DNA of 12,035 nt from NCBI GenBank assembly GCA_003345595.1, contig PRDI01000055.1, forward strand, positions 1-12,035. The letters are read 5' to 3'. The DNA comes from Candidatus Thorarchaeota archaeon. Lineage in GTDB: Archaea; Asgardarchaeota; Thorarchaeia; Thorarchaeales; Thorarchaeaceae. This document shows positions 1 to 10,844 of this stretch, one piece after another. The notes beneath the pieces were generated by a model. The model did no database searches. It was not told the DNA's origin and saw only the letters and a program-made list of their open reading frames with translations. Each line of letters starts with the position of its first letter. Position 1 is the first letter of the stretch. The translations under genes and the position numbers were made by a program.

Positions 1-384
1 ATTATCTGGGATCTGGCTGGTGATGACAGCTTCAAGGAACTTAGGCCAAACTTCTACGATGGCGCCATGGGACTAGTGATTATGTTTGACCTGACAAGAG
101 CTGACACGTTCAAGTCATTGCCCAACTGGATTCAGGAGGCCGTCAGGTTCATCAGACGCCGTGTGCCGCTCATTGTCGTTGGTAACAAGGCGGATCTGCA
201 ACCCTACGTCATTGACCAGTCTATGGCAGAGAGATACGCCACTGGTATCGGGTCGCGATTCATCGCCACAAGCGCAAAGACCGGATCCAATGTAGCTGAC
301 CTGTTCGAACAGGTTGGCATGCTGATTCATGAGAAGTCACAATCCGAAGCGGTAAGAGCAGGCAGACGCAAAGGCATCGAATGA
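1..384 (+). CDS. Rab-like small GTPase (Ras superfamily), 5'-truncated by window edge
   Basis: Frame 1 is open from base 1: IIWDLAGDDSFKELRPNFYDGAMGLVIMFDLT...VVGNKADL...TSAKTG. It has G3 (WDLAG), G4 (NKAD) and G5 (TSAK), plus RabF4/F5-like FYDGA and IMFDLT. The ORF-track ATG at 67 is internal. Confidence 0.93.
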   Translation: MIWDLAGDDSFKELRPNFYDGAMGLVIMFDLTRADTFKSLPNWIQEAVRFIRRRVPLIVVGNKADLQPYVIDQSMAERYATGIGSRFIATSAKTGSNVADLFEQVGMLIHEKSQSEAVRAGRRKGIE

Positions 385-2563: not shown

Positions 2564-4081
2564 ATGTCAAGACCGTTTCCTATCGAGCCTGAGTCATTGC
2601 GAGAGCAGGTTCACTTGGCCTCTCGGGCAATCATGCATTCTAGGAAGGCTCTTGCGATCTCGCACATCGATGCGGATGGTATAACTTCTCTGTCAATCGT
2701 CATCAGTATGCTGAAGAGGCTTGGCAAGGAAGTGGTCTGGAGAAACATTCACCAGCTCAACTCTGAAACTGTGGTCGAGGTCGGGGTTTTGGCTAGAGAA
2801 GTGCAACCAGACCTTGTCATATTCAGCGACTTGGGCTCTGGTCAGATTGGTCTAATTCAGGAACATGTGCAGGGTACTCCGAGCATCGAGTGTATCGTAA
2901 TCCTTGATCACCACATTCCCGACGAAGCGTCTGATCTGAAGAGCGCGTCGGTAGAGAGAAACGGTATCATAGAGGTGAATCCTTGTCAGCATGGTGTTGC
3001 AGGTAGCTATGACCTGTCAGGTGCGGGTGCTGCATTTCTTGTCGCCTACGTCGTTTCACCTGATAACGTTGACCTAAGTGAGCTAGCGGTCGTGGGCGCA
3101 ACAGGCGACCTGCAGGACTACTATGGCAAGGGCTTCAGCGGGATCAACAAGGCGATTGTCCGCTTGGCAGAGTCCGAGGGTTATGTAGCAGTCCGAAGAG
3201 ACCTCACCTTCTTTGGAATAAGCACAAGACCCCTGCCTTATCTGCTTGAATATGCGACAGACCCGTATCTTCCCGGAATAACGGGCAATAGGGACGCTTG
3301 CTTTGCGTTCTTTGATGAGCTTGGGATTCCGCTAAAGGACGCAGATGAAAACTGGAGGACCTGGACCGATCTCGGCAATGAGGAGAAGAAGCAGGTTATC
3401 CAAAGACTCATCGATGTCATCACCCGCAGCTACGATAGTCCTCGAGCCGCAACTGGTATCATCGGTGACGTGATGACGCTTGTCCGGCGTCCACCGAAGA
3501 CCGAGCTCAGGACTGCAAAAGAGTTCTCGACGTTGCTGAATGCATGCGGGAGGAACAGAAAGGCTGAGGTCGGAGTGAGGATTTGCCTTGGCGACCTTCA
3601 ATCTTGGCATGAGGGCCAAGTGCTTCTGCAGCAGCACAGAGCGAACCTTGCGAGTGCCCTTCGACGGCTCGAAACTGGAGGCTTCATTGAAAAGCCTGGA
3701 ATGTATGTAGTAAGGGATCCTGAAACACCGGATACGATCATCGGAGTCGTCATTGGAATGGCACAAGGCTCGAGAATTGTCCCTGCTGATAAGCCGGTCA
3801 TCGGAGTGAGCACCAAGACTACCGGCGATAGTCCGATGGTGAAGATCTCAGGGCGTGTCGGAAGGTCTCTCGTCAAGAGTGGTGTCAACCTGCGAGATGT
3901 CTTCGTGACAGCTAGCCAATCACTGAATGGTGTCTACGGTAGGATGGTGGCTGAAGGGGGTGGACACCCGATGGCGGCAGGCGCCTTCGTGCTTCCAGAG
4001 TATCTCGAGGAATTCCTTGACCTGGTTTCCAGCCTGATACTCAACATGCTGCAATCAGATGGCGAAGAAAAAGGGAGATGA
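2564..4081 (+). CDS. recJ: DHH-family phosphoesterase, archaeal RecJ/GAN (GINS-associated nuclease, Cdc45 homolog)
   Basis: SHIDADG (motif I), FSDLGSG (II), ILDHH (III), DLSGAG, GATGDLQD (IV), FSTLLNACGR and DHHA1 GGGHPMAAG. Also the archaeal GAN-type insertion FGISTRPL...YATDPYLPGITGN. Confidence 0.92.
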   Translation: MSRPFPIEPESLREQVHLASRAIMHSRKALAISHIDADGITSLSIVISMLKRLGKEVVWRNIHQLNSETVVEVGVLAREVQPDLVIFSDLGSGQIGLIQEHVQGTPSIECIVILDHHIPDEASDLKSASVERNGIIEVNPCQHGVAGSYDLSGAGAAFLVAYVVSPDNVDLSELAVVGATGDLQDYYGKGFSGINKAIVRLAESEGYVAVRRDLTFFGISTRPLPYLLEYATDPYLPGITGNRDACFAFFDELGIPLKDADENWRTWTDLGNEEKKQVIQRLIDVITRSYDSPRAATGIIGDVMTLVRRPPKTELRTAKEFSTLLNACGRNRKAEVGVRICLGDLQSWHEGQVLLQQHRANLASALRRLETGGFIEKPGMYVVRDPETPDTIIGVVIGMAQGSRIVPADKPVIGVSTKTTGDSPMVKISGRVGRSLVKSGVNLRDVFVTASQSLNGVYGRMVAEGGGHPMAAGAFVLPEYLEEFLDLVSSLILNMLQSDGEEKGR

Positions 4082-5181: not shown

Positions 5182-6342
5182 CTAATAAAGTGCGAGGCCT
5201 TCTGGCATCGGGATTGCTTTCCTGCACCACGGACACATCTGCTCTTCGCGGGGGTCGAATTTCACGTTCTCCAAATAAAGCCCGCGGGAATCGTGTCCAC
5301 AATGGGGACAGTGGATCTTGACGTAGCCTCTGAGTCTGAAAGATACCATCCATGCGTCAAGTGCAAGTTGCGATTGGCCATCTCGGTCGTACTCCTTCGC
5401 GAGAGCGACCCACACCGCTGCAGCGCCAGAATCGTCCCGGGCGCCGGAAATGAGACAGTCCATCAGTTCCTTGTGCCAGCCTAGCCTATCATACACGTCG
5501 AACAGCTTTTGCCAGCCCTCGGGATCATTGCCTATGCTGCGCTTGGCCTTCTCCAAGTACTTCTTGCAGTCTCGCTCATTTCCTTCGAGCTGCGACAGTA
5601 TGGCGAGTCGCCCGAGTGCCTCTACCTTTGTCGGGTCTTGTTCCAAGACTTTCCTGAAATAGGCGGCGGCCTCGCTTCTTCGGCCCTTCTGAAACTCTGC
5701 CTCGCCTAGAAGGATGAGAGTTCGGTAGTGGTCCGAGTCGACCGAACGTGCTCTCTCAATCAGTGGCATTGCCTCATCGACCTTCCCCTGGACGAGAAGT
5801 GCGTAGGCGTGGTTCGAGATGGCGACTATTGAGTCCGGTTGGAGGCGATGCACGGCCTCCCATACTTCAGCTGCACCATCGTAGTCTCCCATCCGATAAA
5901 GACACATAGCATACAGAGAGTGCAGCGTGATGTTGTCCGGAAAGTGGGTTATCGCCTGTCTCAGTGCCTCTGCAGCATGACTGTAGTCCGCCTTGACGTA
6001 AAGGACCTTACATAGGTCGCTCCAAGCTTCATGCTGGTCCGGATCAAGACGAATGGCCCTGCGGAGATATGTTTCTGAGTCGTCGAACTCTCCCATGGCC
6101 TTCAATGCCCGACCCATGACCAACGCAAGAACGCAGTTGTCTTCGCCTAAGTCCTCAGCTTTTCTCAAGGCTTCTATAGCTTTGGCGGGTTTTCCCATTT
6201 GGAGATAGGCCATGCCAAGACACACGAGAGCATCGCCATCCCTGCTATTGTCCCTCAGTATCTCTTCAAGGATGAGCACCGCTTCCTGCGCGCGTCCTCC
6301 CTCAAGTGCAATGGCTGCATCTCTGATTCTTGTAGAGGTCAA
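5182..6342 (-). CDS. Tetratricopeptide repeat protein with C-terminal Zn-ribbon
   Basis: Multiple 34-aa TPR units (e.g. ALVCLGMAYLQMGKPAKAIEALRKA; TLILLGEAEFQKGRRSEAAAYFRKVLEQDP). C-terminal CPHC-x21-CPWC. TTG start. 23 nt gap to the Nudix gene suggests an operon. Confidence 0.92.
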   Translation of the reverse strand: MTSTRIRDAAIALEGGRAQEAVLILEEILRDNSRDGDALVCLGMAYLQMGKPAKAIEALRKAEDLGEDNCVLALVMGRALKAMGEFDDSETYLRRAIRLDPDQHEAWSDLCKVLYVKADYSHAAEALRQAITHFPDNITLHSLYAMCLYRMGDYDGAAEVWEAVHRLQPDSIVAISNHAYALLVQGKVDEAMPLIERARSVDSDHYRTLILLGEAEFQKGRRSEAAAYFRKVLEQDPTKVEALGRLAILSQLEGNERDCKKYLEKAKRSIGNDPEGWQKLFDVYDRLGWHKELMDCLISGARDDSGAAAVWVALAKEYDRDGQSQLALDAWMVSFRLRGYVKIHCPHCGHDSRGLYLENVKFDPREEQMCPWCRKAIPMPEGLALY

Positions 6343-6432
6343 GTCGGTCTGTGCCTCTCCTGTTCCATAAGGGACTATTGAAACAACGGGCAGGTTGACC
6401 CGCGAGAGCTTTAGTGCGGCCTAGTTCCCGCA

Positions 6433-6456
6433 TTATAAGTACCCTGTCATATGACA
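6433..6456. promoter_or_regulatory. TATA-like TTATAA plus adjacent perfect 12-bp palindrome (putative operator)
   Basis: TTATAA at 6433-6438 and TGTCATATGACA at 6445-6456, in the divergent TPR/methyltransferase intergenic region. Confidence 0.5.
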
Positions 6457-6557
6457 CCGATGAAACCTGGGACCGTATGCCACGATGTGAGCCCAGATCT
6501 CTATTGATGGCTTGGGTACTGTGACAGAGAATGCAGTCATACACCAAAAGGGCTTTG

Positions 6558-6563
6558 TTATAT
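6558..6563 (+). promoter_or_regulatory. Putative TATA box; leaderless methyltransferase mRNA
   Basis: TTATAT ends 23 nt before ATG 6587. No SD is visible. Confidence 0.55.
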
Positions 6564-6586
6564 CTTGAGCCTCAATCGTAGATTCG

Positions 6587-7426
6587 ATGCCAAAGAAGAA
6601 CTACGCTACCCCATTTGAAGTCCTTCATGCTGCTAGCCTTCTCAGTCACAGGTCACGCATCGCAAAGTTTGAAGAGGCCCTTGGGGCCGTCGTGACACCC
6701 GAGAGCTACGTCATAGATCTCGGCACTGGGTCTGGAGTCCTCGCTATGCTTGCGGGAAAGGCGGGAGCTCGCAGAGTGACAGGGGTTGATGTCAACCCTG
6801 AGTGCATCGAGTATGCAGAGAAGGCGGCAAGGCTGAATGGACTGGAAGACAAGATCGATTTCTATGAGGGTCACTTCTCAGACTTCGTGCCTGATGAACT
6901 TGCGGATGTCGTCGTGTGCGAGATGCTCTCGTCGATGTTGTTGATTGAGCAACAGGTTCCGGCCAGCTGCCATGCTGTGAAGCATCTTCTGAAAGCAGGT
7001 GGTCGGATGATGCCGGAACAAGCAAGGGTGTGGGTTGTCCCGGCAGAATGCCCGGCGCTGTGGGAGCGTTTTGCAGTCAGTGGAATGACGTTCCCACGTG
7101 TACCTCAGACCGTGGGGCCGGACGAAAGCAAGGATCTTGCCGCTGCAAGAGAAGTCATCACGTTCAATCTCTCAACAATGAGAAAGACTCCGTCTGTCGA
7201 CAGAGCTTTGGAGTTCACTATCTCGGAGAGAGGGGTGCTGCACGGGATTGTTGGTTTCTTTCAGGCTAGACTCGTGAATGGGGTGAACCTTTACATGAAC
7301 GACGGATGGAGAGAACTCTTTCTGCCGTTCGACACGCCACGTGAGGTTCAGGTATCGGAGTCCATCGAAGTGCACCTGCGATACGTGCCCGGTCAGTTCG
7401 ACTCTGTGGTCGCGAAACTGGAATGA
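6587..7426 (+). CDS. Class I SAM-dependent methyltransferase, protein arginine methyltransferase (PRMT)-like
   Basis: Motif I VIDLGTGSGVLAMLAGKAGA, post-I RVTGVD, motif II ADVVVCEML with E-x8-E loop, motif III LLKAGGRMMP. Beta-barrel segments GVLHGIVGFF and DGWRELFLPF. Confidence 0.88.
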   Translation: MPKKNYATPFEVLHAASLLSHRSRIAKFEEALGAVVTPESYVIDLGTGSGVLAMLAGKAGARRVTGVDVNPECIEYAEKAARLNGLEDKIDFYEGHFSDFVPDELADVVVCEMLSSMLLIEQQVPASCHAVKHLLKAGGRMMPEQARVWVVPAECPALWERFAVSGMTFPRVPQTVGPDESKDLAAAREVITFNLSTMRKTPSVDRALEFTISERGVLHGIVGFFQARLVNGVNLYMNDGWRELFLPFDTPREVQVSESIEVHLRYVPGQFDSVVAKLE

Positions 7427-7525: not shown

Positions 7526-8245
7526 TCACACTGCATAACTGATAGCCCTATTTGGACAGACATCAATGCAGCTGCCGCATAAGATGCACTCCTTGTGATA
7601 GAGGTCTTGCTTCAAGACTCTGTCCATCACGTCCAGATTCATTGGACAGGCAGTACTGCAAGTCCCACACTGCTCACAGAGCTCGGTGTCTGCTGCCAGA
7701 TGAAGAGCAGGCCACCCAGCTCGGTGTTGAATAGCTGCTCCTGCTATCATGATGGGAGCCAGCCAACATACATACTGGCAGTTCGTCCTCGTTCCGACTA
7801 GAAAGGCCGCCGGGACAATGATGGCTATCACACCAAAGAACATGATGAGTTCCTGAGTGATAGCAGTGGTTTCGGTGCCAAAGAACAGGTCGACTGAGTG
7901 GAACCCTCCTGCCCTCAGTGCAAGGAGCGCGATTGCAGAGAGCCATACACCAGAGATCATATACTTCGCCTTCTGGAACCGCCCGCCGGGTACTCGCTTG
8001 TTTGTCGCCGCTGCGCAGAGTTCATTCAGTCCTGAGCCTGGGCAGAGCCAGCCACAGAAAGCGCGCCCTAAAAAGAGGGATGACAGAAACAGGAGAACGA
8101 AAATGACAAGGCTTCCATTCACCACTCCCTGGGATGCCGCGACGATGACCAGCACCGGTGAGAAGAAGAGATGGAAGATCAGGAGGCTCTGGAAGAGTAC
8201 GAATGAGACCAGCAGCAGCGCTCTGCGAGTGATCTGTCTTTTCAT
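7526..8245 (-). CDS. 4Fe-4S binding membrane protein (NapH/MauN-like polyferredoxin)
   Basis: About 4-5 TM helices, GRAFCGWLCP, CQYVCW, and two ferredoxin motifs CEQCGTCSTACP and CILCGSCIDVCP. ATG 8245 preferred because AAGGA lies upstream; 8251 and 8275 are possible. Confidence 0.92.
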   Translation of the reverse strand: MKRQITRRALLLVSFVLFQSLLIFHLFFSPVLVIVAASQGVVNGSLVIFVLLFLSSLFLGRAFCGWLCPGSGLNELCAAATNKRVPGGRFQKAKYMISGVWLSAIALLALRAGGFHSVDLFFGTETTAITQELIMFFGVIAIIVPAAFLVGTRTNCQYVCWLAPIMIAGAAIQHRAGWPALHLAADTELCEQCGTCSTACPMNLDVMDRVLKQDLYHKECILCGSCIDVCPNRAISYAV

Positions 8246-8471
8246 GGCCATTCCTTGCGGTGTTTCCCTTCCCATTTGGGATAGGGGATGGTGAGGAGAA
8301 TCTCACTGCTGGTATTCGGGCGCTCTCAACCAGACTTCTCGGCGAGTCATCTCTGTTCTTGTGTTGACTCAAGAAAAGCATAACGCTCCTGCTGAAATCT
8401 GTGGATAGCAAGCTAGCGGCCATACCGAAGCGCTAATCAGACTCACCCATCGTCCGGCCCACGGATGAGAG

Positions 8472-8900: not shown

Positions 8901-9014
8901 CCTGACTGCTCCATGACTGTGAGTGCGTTCACTTAGAATCAGTGCGGATTCCGCGTTCACAATCGTCATCGCACTTCTGCACAACAGCGGATGCTACCAC
9001 ACGCTTCATTGGGA

Positions 9015-9027
9015 AGAAGCTTTTAAT
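9015..9027 (+). promoter_or_regulatory. Putative BRE + TATA for phosphoribosyltransferase
   Basis: AGAAGC followed by TTTTAAT, 37 nt upstream of ATG 9065. This supports 9065 rather than 8942 as the start. Confidence 0.5.
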
Positions 9028-9064
9028 GCGCAGTCATGCGGCTCAATGGCTGGTTGTGCTCGCC

Positions 9065-9733
9065 ATGGAACTGAAGGGACCTCTCTGCTACGTTCTCGAT
9101 TTCGACGACATATATGATTACGCCTATCAAACGGCGTTGAAGGTCAGGGAATCGGGCTGGAGACCTGATGCCATAGTTGGAGTTGCCCGAGGAGGGTGGG
9201 TCCATGCAAGGATCCAGTGTGACCTCCTTGGTGTGAAAGAACTCTACAGTGTCAAGGTGTCTCACTGGGGCGTCACCGCCACGAAGGACGGAAAGGCCAA
9301 GATATCCTGTCCCCTGGTGGGTGATGTGAAGGGCAAGCGAGTGCTTGTTGTCGATGATATCACAGATACGGGTGAGAGCCTGACGATGGCGGTGAACCAT
9401 GTGAAGGACATGGGCCACCCATCAGACGTGAGAACTGCTACGCTCATGCACATCGCGGGGTCGAAGTTCGTGCCGGACTACTTCGGTGTCGAGGTAACTT
9501 GGGCATGGGAGATATGGCCGTGGAACTACTATGAGGACTTGACTGCTCTGATCACGAAGGTGTTTCAGGGTGAGAAGGTCAAGGAGATGAGTACGCTCGA
9601 ACTCAAGAAGCATCTTCGTGAGTACAACAACGTGGTCGTTTCAGACGAGCAGATCTCCAAGATCAAGGCACACATGGGGTTCCTGGGTCTGATTCAGTAT
9701 CCTCTCGATAAGATATGGAGGATGCTGAAGTAG
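9065..9733 (+). CDS. Type I purine phosphoribosyltransferase (archaeal Gpt/Hpt-like, COG2236) with C-terminal helical extension
   Basis: PDAIVGVARGG, PRPP-binding VLVVDDITDTGESL, TATL, PDYF and W..WPW motifs. Confidence 0.93.
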   Translation: MELKGPLCYVLDFDDIYDYAYQTALKVRESGWRPDAIVGVARGGWVHARIQCDLLGVKELYSVKVSHWGVTATKDGKAKISCPLVGDVKGKRVLVVDDITDTGESLTMAVNHVKDMGHPSDVRTATLMHIAGSKFVPDYFGVEVTWAWEIWPWNYYEDLTALITKVFQGEKVKEMSTLELKKHLREYNNVVVSDEQISKIKAHMGFLGLIQYPLDKIWRMLK

Positions 9734-9983: not shown

Positions 9984-10844
9984 ATGGCTTTCGAAGCAAA
10001 GCTCGCGTACACACTCTTGGATCCCAAAATGAAGGAGAAACTTGAAGCTCTGCTGCCAGTTGAGATAGGGATGTTTGGCGGCAGCGGCAACTACGACCCA
10101 ACAATGATTGAGAACCCAATCGAGCTCAAGGTATTCACGCCCTACGGTGCTGCATCAGACAACTTCATCGTGGGAATGGTGAAAGGCCGCACTCTCGCCT
10201 TCCTCGCTCGACACAGCAGGAACCATCGGATTCCTCCTCACATGATCAACTACCGCGCAAACGTGTGGGGGATGAAGTCGCTTGGCGTGAAGAGAATCAT
10301 CAGTCCGTGCGCCTGCGGCAGTCTCCAGCCAGACAGAATAGATCTAGGCGAGTTTGTCATCGTCGACCAGATATTCGATAGGACCTTTGGCCAAAGGAAG
10401 GACACATTCTTCGATGGAGGCCCAGTGGCCCATGTTTCATTTGGGAACCCCTACTGCCCTGAGTTGCGAAAGATCACCATCGAAACAGCCAAGCAGCTTA
10501 GCTACAAGGTTCACGAGAAGGGGACCTATGTGTGTATCAATGGACCTAGGTTCTCCACGTATGCGGAATCGATATTCTTCCACAATCAGGGCTGGGAGGT
10601 TGTCGGGATGACCGCATACCCTGAGTCAGTGCTCGCGCGCGAGTCCGGAATTTGCTACGTGAATATTGCCATGCCCACGGACAAGGACGTGTATGGGACA
10701 GAGCACGTGACTCACGAGTTCGTCCTGAAGACGATGGCGAATAATATCGAACGTGTGAGGAAGCTCACCTTCGAGATGATTCCGAAGATACCCAAGAAAG
10801 CAACCTGCACATGTCAGACGGCAATGTCGCATGGTCTGTTCTAG
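9984..10844 (+). CDS. mtnP: S-methyl-5'-thioadenosine phosphorylase (MTAP, PNP/MTAP family 2)
   Basis: GGSG, TPYG, FLARH..NH.IPPHMINYRANVW, ACGSL, GPRFST.AES, VGMT..PE..LARE, base-specificity TDKD (DxD) and C-terminal CTC. Confidence 0.93.
   Translation: MAFEAKLAYTLLDPKMKEKLEALLPVEIGMFGGSGNYDPTMIENPIELKVFTPYGAASDNFIVGMVKGRTLAFLARHSRNHRIPPHMINYRANVWGMKSLGVKRIISPCACGSLQPDRIDLGEFVIVDQIFDRTFGQRKDTFFDGGPVAHVSFGNPYCPELRKITIETAKQLSYKVHEKGTYVCINGPRFSTYAESIFFHNQGWEVVGMTAYPESVLARESGICYVNIAMPTDKDVYGTEHVTHEFVLKTMANNIERVRKLTFEMIPKIPKKATCTCQTAMSHGLF

Follow-up and report, generated by a model that had tools for sequence, protein, structure and literature searches.

Arginine methylation by protein arginine N-methyltransferases (PRMTs) is treated as a hallmark of eukaryotes. 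Does an Asgard archaeon encode an enzyme of this kind as well? The question was raised by a stretch of 12,035 nucleotides from Candidatus Thorarchaeota archaeon (contig PRDI01000055.1 of assembly GCA_003345595.1, which comprises 129 contigs and 2.73 Mb at a completeness of 83%), referred to as the window hereafter. A preliminary description of this DNA had pointed to a small PRMT-like gene. The gene lies at 6587..7426 on the forward strand, runs from an ATG to a stop codon at 7424-7426 and encodes 279 amino acids; the reading frame and all motifs that had been quoted for it were found in place. We identify its product as a conserved protein of the PRMT fold that is mislabelled in databases. 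Its homologues, called the Thor family here, usually carry the label of a ribosomal L11 methyltransferase or an RNA methylase: among the 120 homologues listed, 17 bear the NCBI product name "L11 methyltransferase" and 12 the JGI product name "predicted RNA methylase".

The fold was addressed with an AlphaFold2 model built on an alignment of 31 homologues (mean pLDDT 91.5, pTM 0.87), in which residues 1-9 were the only unreliable part. Foldseek against the PDB, a check that the preliminary description had proposed, returned PRMTs alone among the matches listed, with TMq values of 0.71-0.82 and PRMT7 of T. brucei as the best match (4m38, E 3e-23, TMq 0.80). VIA-align, a fold search independent of Foldseek, compared the model with 48,161 representative chains, and PRMTs took every one of the ranks 1-15 (PRMT5, PRMT3, PRMT2, CARM1, PRMT7, PRMT10, PRMT6, PRMT9 and PRMT1), with Z between 21.8 and 26.7 and 258-278 aligned residues that extended from residue 1 or 5 of the model to residue 279. 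Rank 16 was PrmA, where Z was 16.0 and the 140 aligned residues covered the Rossmann half only, and generic Rossmann methyltransferases came after it. Identity in the structural alignments to PRMTs was 17-23%. Since the matches to PRMTs extend over two domains in both searches, the PRMT-specific beta-barrel is present; a model lacking this barrel had been named beforehand as evidence against a PRMT. The DSSP assignment of the model and the VIA alignments place it in a C-terminal domain formed by residues ~145-279 (7019..7423, forward strand).

Sequence comparison pointed in the same direction. When the PDB chains were searched with phmmer, PRMTs made up 58 of the 60 matches listed, starting from E 1.9e-15 for PRMT1/Hmt1 and including PRMT2, PRMT3, PRMT6, PRMT7, PRMT8, PRMT9 and CARM1. 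The other two, in 58th and 59th place, were PrmA with E ~2e-8. With a profile of the 31 homologues, the E-values came to 1.1e-27 for PRMT7, 3.8e-26 for PRMT9 and 1.1e-24 for PRMT8; in the alignment to PRMT8, which covers residues 33-269 of the query, the dGW lies on the thW of the chain. The resemblance to PRMTs is far above chance.

Which of the residues that characterize PRMTs are kept? Conservation was evaluated in an alignment of 31 family members, 47-89% identical to the query. The N-terminal helices YATPFEVLHAASLLSHRSRIAKF (residues 6-28, 6602..6670, forward strand), likened in the preliminary description to those of PRMT1, align with PRMT7 in our profile comparison. Their Arg24, invariant in 31/31 sequences, falls on the Arg of "DKDRNIKY" in PRMT7 and on that of the corresponding helix motif in PRMT9, the residue which binds the carboxylate of S-adenosylmethionine (SAM) in PRMT structures. 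The SAM-binding motif I in the Rossmann domain, VIDLGTGSG (residues 42-50, 6710..6736, forward strand), aligns with the VLDVGCGTG-type motif of PRMTs, and its D44, G46, G48 and G50 are again invariant in all 31 members. The same holds for C111, E112, M113, L114, S115, E121 and Q123 in the double-E loop CEMLSSMLLIEQQ (residues 111-123, 6917..6955, forward strand). Here CEMLSSMLLIE, residues 111-121 with its Glu codons at 6920-6922 and 6947-6949, shows the E-x8-E spacing that had been noticed before, and phmmer paired cEmlssmlliE with sEwmgyfllyE of PRMT1/Hmt1; the loop of PRMT8 was aligned likewise. In the barrel domain, which contains GVLHGIVGFF at residues 216-225 and DGWRELFLPF at residues 239-248, an invariant DGW (D239, G240 and W241 in 31/31; 7301..7309, forward strand) replaces the THW loop. 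W241 aligns to the Trp of "thW" in PRMT8 and of "THW" in bacterial relatives, so that the loop is indeed altered as described. All in all, the view of a compact PRMT-like enzyme of 279 amino acids with an intact double-E loop was borne out.

The statement that the protein has no dimerisation arm has to be corrected in part. The arm segment between P152 and F193 (7040..7165, forward strand) counts 42 residues in three Thor-type sequences, as opposed to 52-55 (median 54) in 28 PRMT-like proteins outside this type and ~54 in PRMT8, the latter number being a count from the profile alignment. In hhalign, gaps of 6 and 7 residues fell into this segment and 5 more residues were missing before the Trp. 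In this place, the model nevertheless retained a five-residue helix (156-160) besides short strands. Rather than being absent, the arm is shortened: it lacks about 12 residues, roughly one third of the length that such arms usually have. The protein might be monomeric, as had been suggested.

We then asked how widely the gene is distributed, using 400 genomes of the phylum and a threshold of E <= 1e-15. It was found, nearly always in single copy, in 78 of the 85 genomes of the family to which the window belongs and in the only genome of the sister family. The other families gave no match, with the exception of f17 (3/3 genomes) and f18 (2/2), where distant matches (1e-16 to 1e-21) corresponded to open reading frames (ORFs) of 417-441 amino acids. 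The latter constitute a second Asgard family of PRMT-like proteins (e.g. L100:1965-3218, forward strand, and L102:1191-2459, reverse strand; also L157 and L159). Further ORFs of 322-325 amino acids in f17/f18 genomes also exceeded the Pfam cut-off for PRMT_C. This domain was detected above its cut-off in 3/400 Asgard genomes, all from f17/f18, and in 0/14 control genomes; scanning the genomes of the window's family with PF22528 yielded one weak match in 85. Both the few Asgard matches and the count for PRMT_C show that PRMT-fold genes are rare in Asgard archaea, and the compact family is confined to one order. Among the homologues listed, all named ones came from metagenome-assembled genomes of Thorarchaeota or "Promethearchaeota". 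Seven DNA sequencing runs, from wetland metagenomes of three studies, contain the stretch wholly or partly; no RNA run was listed among those that do. As far as full-text searches reach, neither Asgard archaea nor Thorarchaeota have been reported to possess a PRMT homologue, and the parts of PMC7194090, PMC12153100, PMC11896706 and PMC10602318 that were accessible hold no relevant statement on archaeal PRMTs.

The gene has a constant companion. Upstream of it, on the opposite strand (5182..6342), lies a gene with a TTG start for a protein of 386 amino acids, with ten helix pairs resembling tetratricopeptide repeats (TPR) and matches to Pfam TPR families. In its model (pLDDT 93.7), 20 helices wind into a superhelix, after which comes a small end rich in strands. 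The PDB folds that match it best are TPR superhelices of a generic kind, O-GlcNAc transferase providing one example. The C-terminal end, residues 340-386 (5185..5325, reverse strand), contains four Cys, C345, C348, C370 and C373, which are invariant in 28/28 orthologues and probably form a zinc ribbon. The window's family has full-length orthologues of this partner in 76/85 genomes, and the sister family has one in its single genome; elsewhere only weak generic TPR matches were obtained. In 75 of 81 cases the PRMT-like match had the partner less than 600 bp away on the same contig, always head-to-head and separated by a median of 126 bp, and in four of the six exceptions the PRMT-like gene was situated at a contig end. 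The pairing was kept in the sister family despite identities that went down to 40% and 28%. Both modules also occur in one chain: the fusion protein P0272 (584 amino acids) combines TPR at residues 17-278 with a PRMT module at 312-557, and two bacterial Atlas clusters named TPR proteins, of 498 amino acids (51 members) and 540 amino acids (74 members), matched the whole fold of the query with TM 0.88-0.89. The fusion proteins stem from Cyanobacteriota and Pseudomonadota. These observations suggest that the partnership between the enzyme and the TPR protein is functional and probably physical.

What could such a pair act upon? When all ORFs of the genome were scanned for Arg/Gly-rich sequence, nine were retrieved. 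On top stood an Ssb-like protein of 193 amino acids with an OB fold (Pfam 8.6e-14; contig C9:1121-1699, reverse strand, identical with L125:1121-1699), which ends in a 68-residue RGG/GAR tail of eukaryotic style with 12 RG/GR dipeptides. A protein of 288 amino acids (contig C49:84955-85821, forward strand, identical with L126:1456-2319) combines an ECR1_N exosome-type N-terminal domain, a zinc ribbon and a C-terminal tail rich in Arg, Gly and Asp. Both the RGG-tailed SSB-like proteins and the ECR1_N protein are plausible candidate substrates. The SSB-like family is multi-copy, with up to eight matches per genome, and was found in 84/85 genomes of the window's family and in 19/19 of family f14; in 30/30 loci (15 from the Thor group, 15 from f14) the best SSB-like ORF carried a tail with 3-13 RG/GR dipeptides. 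We considered these tails as a marker of the enzyme and rejected the idea, for f14 possesses the tails and gave no match to the enzyme at E 1e-15.

What has been observed, then, is how the protein folds, which of its residues are conserved, in which genomes it occurs and with which gene it is paired; its chemistry and substrate, any physical contact with the TPR protein and its oligomeric state are matters of inference. We consider it rather probable that the protein is a compact enzyme of the PRMT superfamily which most likely methylates arginine in proteins or peptides and most likely does so together with the TPR/zinc-ribbon protein. In this reaction, SAM would be held by Arg24 and motif I, and the guanidinium group of the substrate by the invariant E112 and E121. 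The methyl group would then be passed from SAM to a guanidino nitrogen of the arginine, with the TPR/zinc-ribbon protein recruiting or presenting the substrates. The choice of arginine as acceptor is suggested by the conserved residues only.

Several points weigh against this assignment. The match to Pfam PRMT5_C (PF17286; residues 149-264) scored 29.6 bits and stayed just below the cut-off of 30.3, and PRMT_C (PF22528) did not match the query at E up to 1. In the THW-loop signature, the Trp alone is kept, and the Asp of the "L.D..R" helix, three residues before the Arg and present in 27/28 relatives outside the Thor family, is His or Gln within it. Loss of both the THW His and the helix Asp indicates an active-site environment unlike that of characterised PRMTs. 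In PRMT1 this Asp and the His of THW form a pair, which the Thor family might have swapped into a His/Gln...Asp239 couple. THW itself is a variable signature, from which PRMT5 and PRMT7 also diverge. The RG-rich tails in f14, where the enzyme gave no match, imply that such tails do not depend on the enzyme. In the literature searched we found no activity data for the Thor family or its bacterial relatives. Finally, the Thor family appears to be closer to bacterial proteins than to eukaryotic PRMTs, as far as scores can tell: eukaryotic PRMTs reached at most 60 bits over the Rossmann half, as compared to 89-124 bits over the full length for bacterial relatives.

The latter came from a search against 1.84 billion representatives, which gave 10,610 matches at E <= 1e-3. 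Nine of them, mostly fragments from the same family, reached E <= 1e-30. Below them came proteins of 280-410 amino acids, which scored 89-124 bits, were 27-40% identical and aligned to nearly the whole query; 8 of the 9 that were scanned matched Pfam PRMT_C. SE-x8-E is found in most of the bacterial relatives and THW in 15/28. In a locus scan that took a single genome for each species, 453 of 600 candidate stretches were confirmed, and each of the 80 loci kept belonged to a bacterium (Myxococcota, Actinomycetota, Planctomycetota, Verrucomicrobiota, Acidobacteriota, Chloroflexota and others). When the Thor and bacterial alignments were compared by hhalign, a probability of 100 and an E-value of 4e-59 were obtained. 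In many bacterial relatives a C-terminal extension of ~70-80 amino acids is conserved (alignment columns ~300-472); a PqqD-like nature of it was considered and dropped, as no Pfam match appeared at E up to 0.01. A further Atlas cluster, of 313 amino acids and 160 members, 95% of them viral (Uroviricota), showed PrmA-type Pfam matches and ranked with the nearest clusters by language-model features (score 0.96); it may represent a phage PRMT/PrmA-like methyltransferase.

A tree of 73 sequences (IQ-TREE, LG+C20+F+G4), composed without eukaryotic PRMTs, united the 15 Thor sequences in one clade with support of 100/99 and a long branch. Their sole sister was P0138 (100/99), a rare protein with just one close relative. 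The f17/f18 proteins were placed among the bacterial ones as a clade of their own (100/100). A topology that unites both Asgard groups was not rejected by the approximately unbiased test (p 0.112), so that they may go back to a single Asgard origin. The Thor family appears to be a lineage-specific member of a radiation that is mainly bacterial, and not a forerunner of the eukaryotic PRMTs. With the nearest relatives in bacteria, the occurrence in one Asgard order and PRMT_C in 3/400 Asgard genomes, the "eukaryote-like" arginine methylation that had been suggested for this archaeon lost ground.

This kinship bears on the question of the substrate. Bacterial PRMT relatives are described as peptide methylases in operons for secondary-metabolite or antibiotic-like biosynthesis, according to the part of the source that was accessible (PMC3417536). 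A non-protein substrate is therefore possible for the archaeal enzyme too: with its nearest relatives outside the Thor family in bacteria, as the locus scan and hhalign indicate, it could be a methylase of guanidino or amine groups in peptides or small molecules instead of a modifier of cellular proteins. We regard this as possible, yet distinctly unlikely. Biosynthetic genes (NRPS, dioxygenase, amine oxidase) were found neither in the window nor in 11 related loci. Throughout a whole archaeal order, the gene occurs almost universally, in single copy and with conserved synteny, which agrees more readily with a housekeeping function than with accessory metabolism. Moreover, the partner conserved beside it is a TPR protein, a typical scaffold for protein binding.

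The database names imply another activity, that of a PrmA-type methyltransferase of lysine or the N-terminus of L11, or of an RNA methylase. PrmA is the top Pfam match (1.2e-15), and the NCBI and JGI names are carried by 17 and 12 of the 120 homologues listed. The JGI name is also the one lead towards COG4076, to which the preliminary description had related archaeal proteins of this kind; two papers were found to contain this term, neither of them relevant for archaea. The match is, however, limited to residues 31-119 of the query and positions 154-240 of the 296 in the profile, i.e. to the generic Rossmann core, and the NCBIfam models for PrmA scored 24-53 bits where their cut-offs are 183-327. 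Solved PrmA structures aligned over 137-140 residues with Z ~16, as opposed to 258-278 residues and Z 22-27 for PRMTs. The substrate domain at the N-terminus of PrmA is missing, and the double-E loop and the beta-barrel are features of PRMTs. We consequently hold the database names to be very improbably right. Slightly less probable still is that the PRMT-fold protein has little or no catalytic activity and acts as a SAM sensor or scaffold for the TPR/zinc-ribbon protein: inactive PRMT paralogues exist in trypanosomes, the PRMT1 "enzyme-prozyme" entry 6dnz was among the PDB matches, and the THW His, the helix Asp and part of the arm have been lost, but all SAM- and guanidinium-binding residues that we examined are invariant in 31/31 sequences, which would be unusual for a dead enzyme.

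Returning to an arginine methyltransferase that works with the TPR/zinc-ribbon protein, one may go a step further and envisage a two-component system, in which a minimal PRMT, its shortened arm being unable to sustain the classical homodimer, and a separately encoded TPR/zinc-ribbon subunit in charge of scaffolding and of delivering substrates would together methylate the RGG tails of the multi-copy SSB-like OB-fold proteins and further Arg/Gly-rich proteins that bind nucleic acids. This would amount to an RGG/PRMT axis of eukaryotic type in an Asgard archaeon, be it ancestral or convergent. As a whole, we put forward this extended proposal as a speculative one that is more probably wrong than right by a wide distance.

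The upstream region supports the gene start adopted here. In the intergenic region of the window (6343-6586), a TATA-like box, TTATAT, is found at 6558..6563 on the forward strand, ~26 nt 5' of the ATG. Most of 29 orthologous upstream regions show TTATAAGTA, a spacer of ~12 nt and then ATGGCAAA, the counterpart of which in the window is ATGCCAAAG at 6587. The conserved pattern thus corresponds to a TATA box followed by the start codon (MAK...), and its conservation across orthologues supports this start codon and suggests a leaderless mRNA. The TTATAT box is predicted to be, probably, the promoter of this leaderless transcript. Most orthologues of the TPR gene apparently start with TTG or GTG.

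Further downstream and on the same strand, a phosphoribosyltransferase gene (8942..9733; Pfam Pribosyltran 6.1e-17) was conserved in position across genera, in 9 of 11 orthologous loci. It is adjoined, in 7 of the 11 loci, where the flank reaches that far, by a gene for a phosphorylase of the PNP_UDP_1 family (9984..10844, forward strand; Pfam 2.2e-40), which by eye resembles MTAP. A functional tie of these two genes to the methyltransferase is uncertain. Methylthioadenosine inhibits human PRMT5; the adjacency of an MTAP-like gene may be a coincidence or may be worth attention. Between the PRMT-like and the phosphoribosyltransferase genes, a membrane protein with 4Fe-4S motifs is encoded on the reverse strand (7526-8275), an insertion belonging to this genus that was seen only in the window and its closest genome, L009. 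The part upstream of the methyltransferase gene contains, all on the forward strand, a small GTPase of the Ras family truncated by the start of the window (1-384), an ORF of 172 amino acids with no Pfam match (1868-2386) and a RecJ-like protein with DHH, DHH-CID and DHHA1 domains (2564-4081).

What does the locus teach us? One Asgard order keeps a stripped-down PRMT fold with intact catalytic glutamates and under strong conservation. Its gene is paired with that of a TPR/zinc-ribbon protein, and single-strand-binding proteins with RGG tails are encoded in the same genomes. If active, the enzyme would rank among the smallest PRMTs and help to find out what arm and THW loop actually contribute; it would also allow to test whether methylation of RGG sequences predates the eukaryotes. 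The evolutionary significance is tempered, since the evidence points to a lineage-specific branch in a radiation of mostly bacterial proteins, and not to an ancestor of the eukaryotic PRMTs. Independently of this, a systematic misannotation as "L11 methyltransferase" has been exposed.

How does the Thor protein finally compare to known systems? Closest among the eukaryotic PRMTs, judged by profile, are PRMT7 and PRMT9 (4c4a, 4m38, 8rbk, 6pdm), and PRMT1, PRMT3, PRMT8, CARM1 and PRMT5 are related as well. It shares with them the succession of Rossmann domain and barrel, motif I, the helix Arg, E-x8-E and the Trp of the THW loop. It differs in its length of 279 amino acids, in an arm segment that is ~12 residues shorter, in the DGW and in a His or Gln instead of the helix Asp; an N-terminal accessory domain or a second module is lacking, as is the match to PRMT_C. 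PRMT9 carries TPR repeats in the same chain, whereas those of the Thor system reside in a separate protein encoded next door. By sequence, the bacterial PRMT-like methyltransferases, mostly annotated as "L11 methyltransferase family", are closest. They have the same domain order, E-x8-E in most cases and in some cases fused TPR repeats, but with 280-410 amino acids, a PRMT_C match, an arm of 52-55 residues, THW in 15/28 and the helix Asp in 27/28 they depart from the Thor type. The second Asgard family, that of f17/f18, likewise possesses a PRMT-like Rossmann domain and a barrel, and is distinguished by a length of 417-422 amino acids with a C-terminal extension and, by eye, by E-x7-E and "PSW". 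PrmA, although the best Pfam match by E-value, has just the class I Rossmann core in common with the Thor protein and adds to it an N-terminal domain of its own that the Thor protein does not possess.

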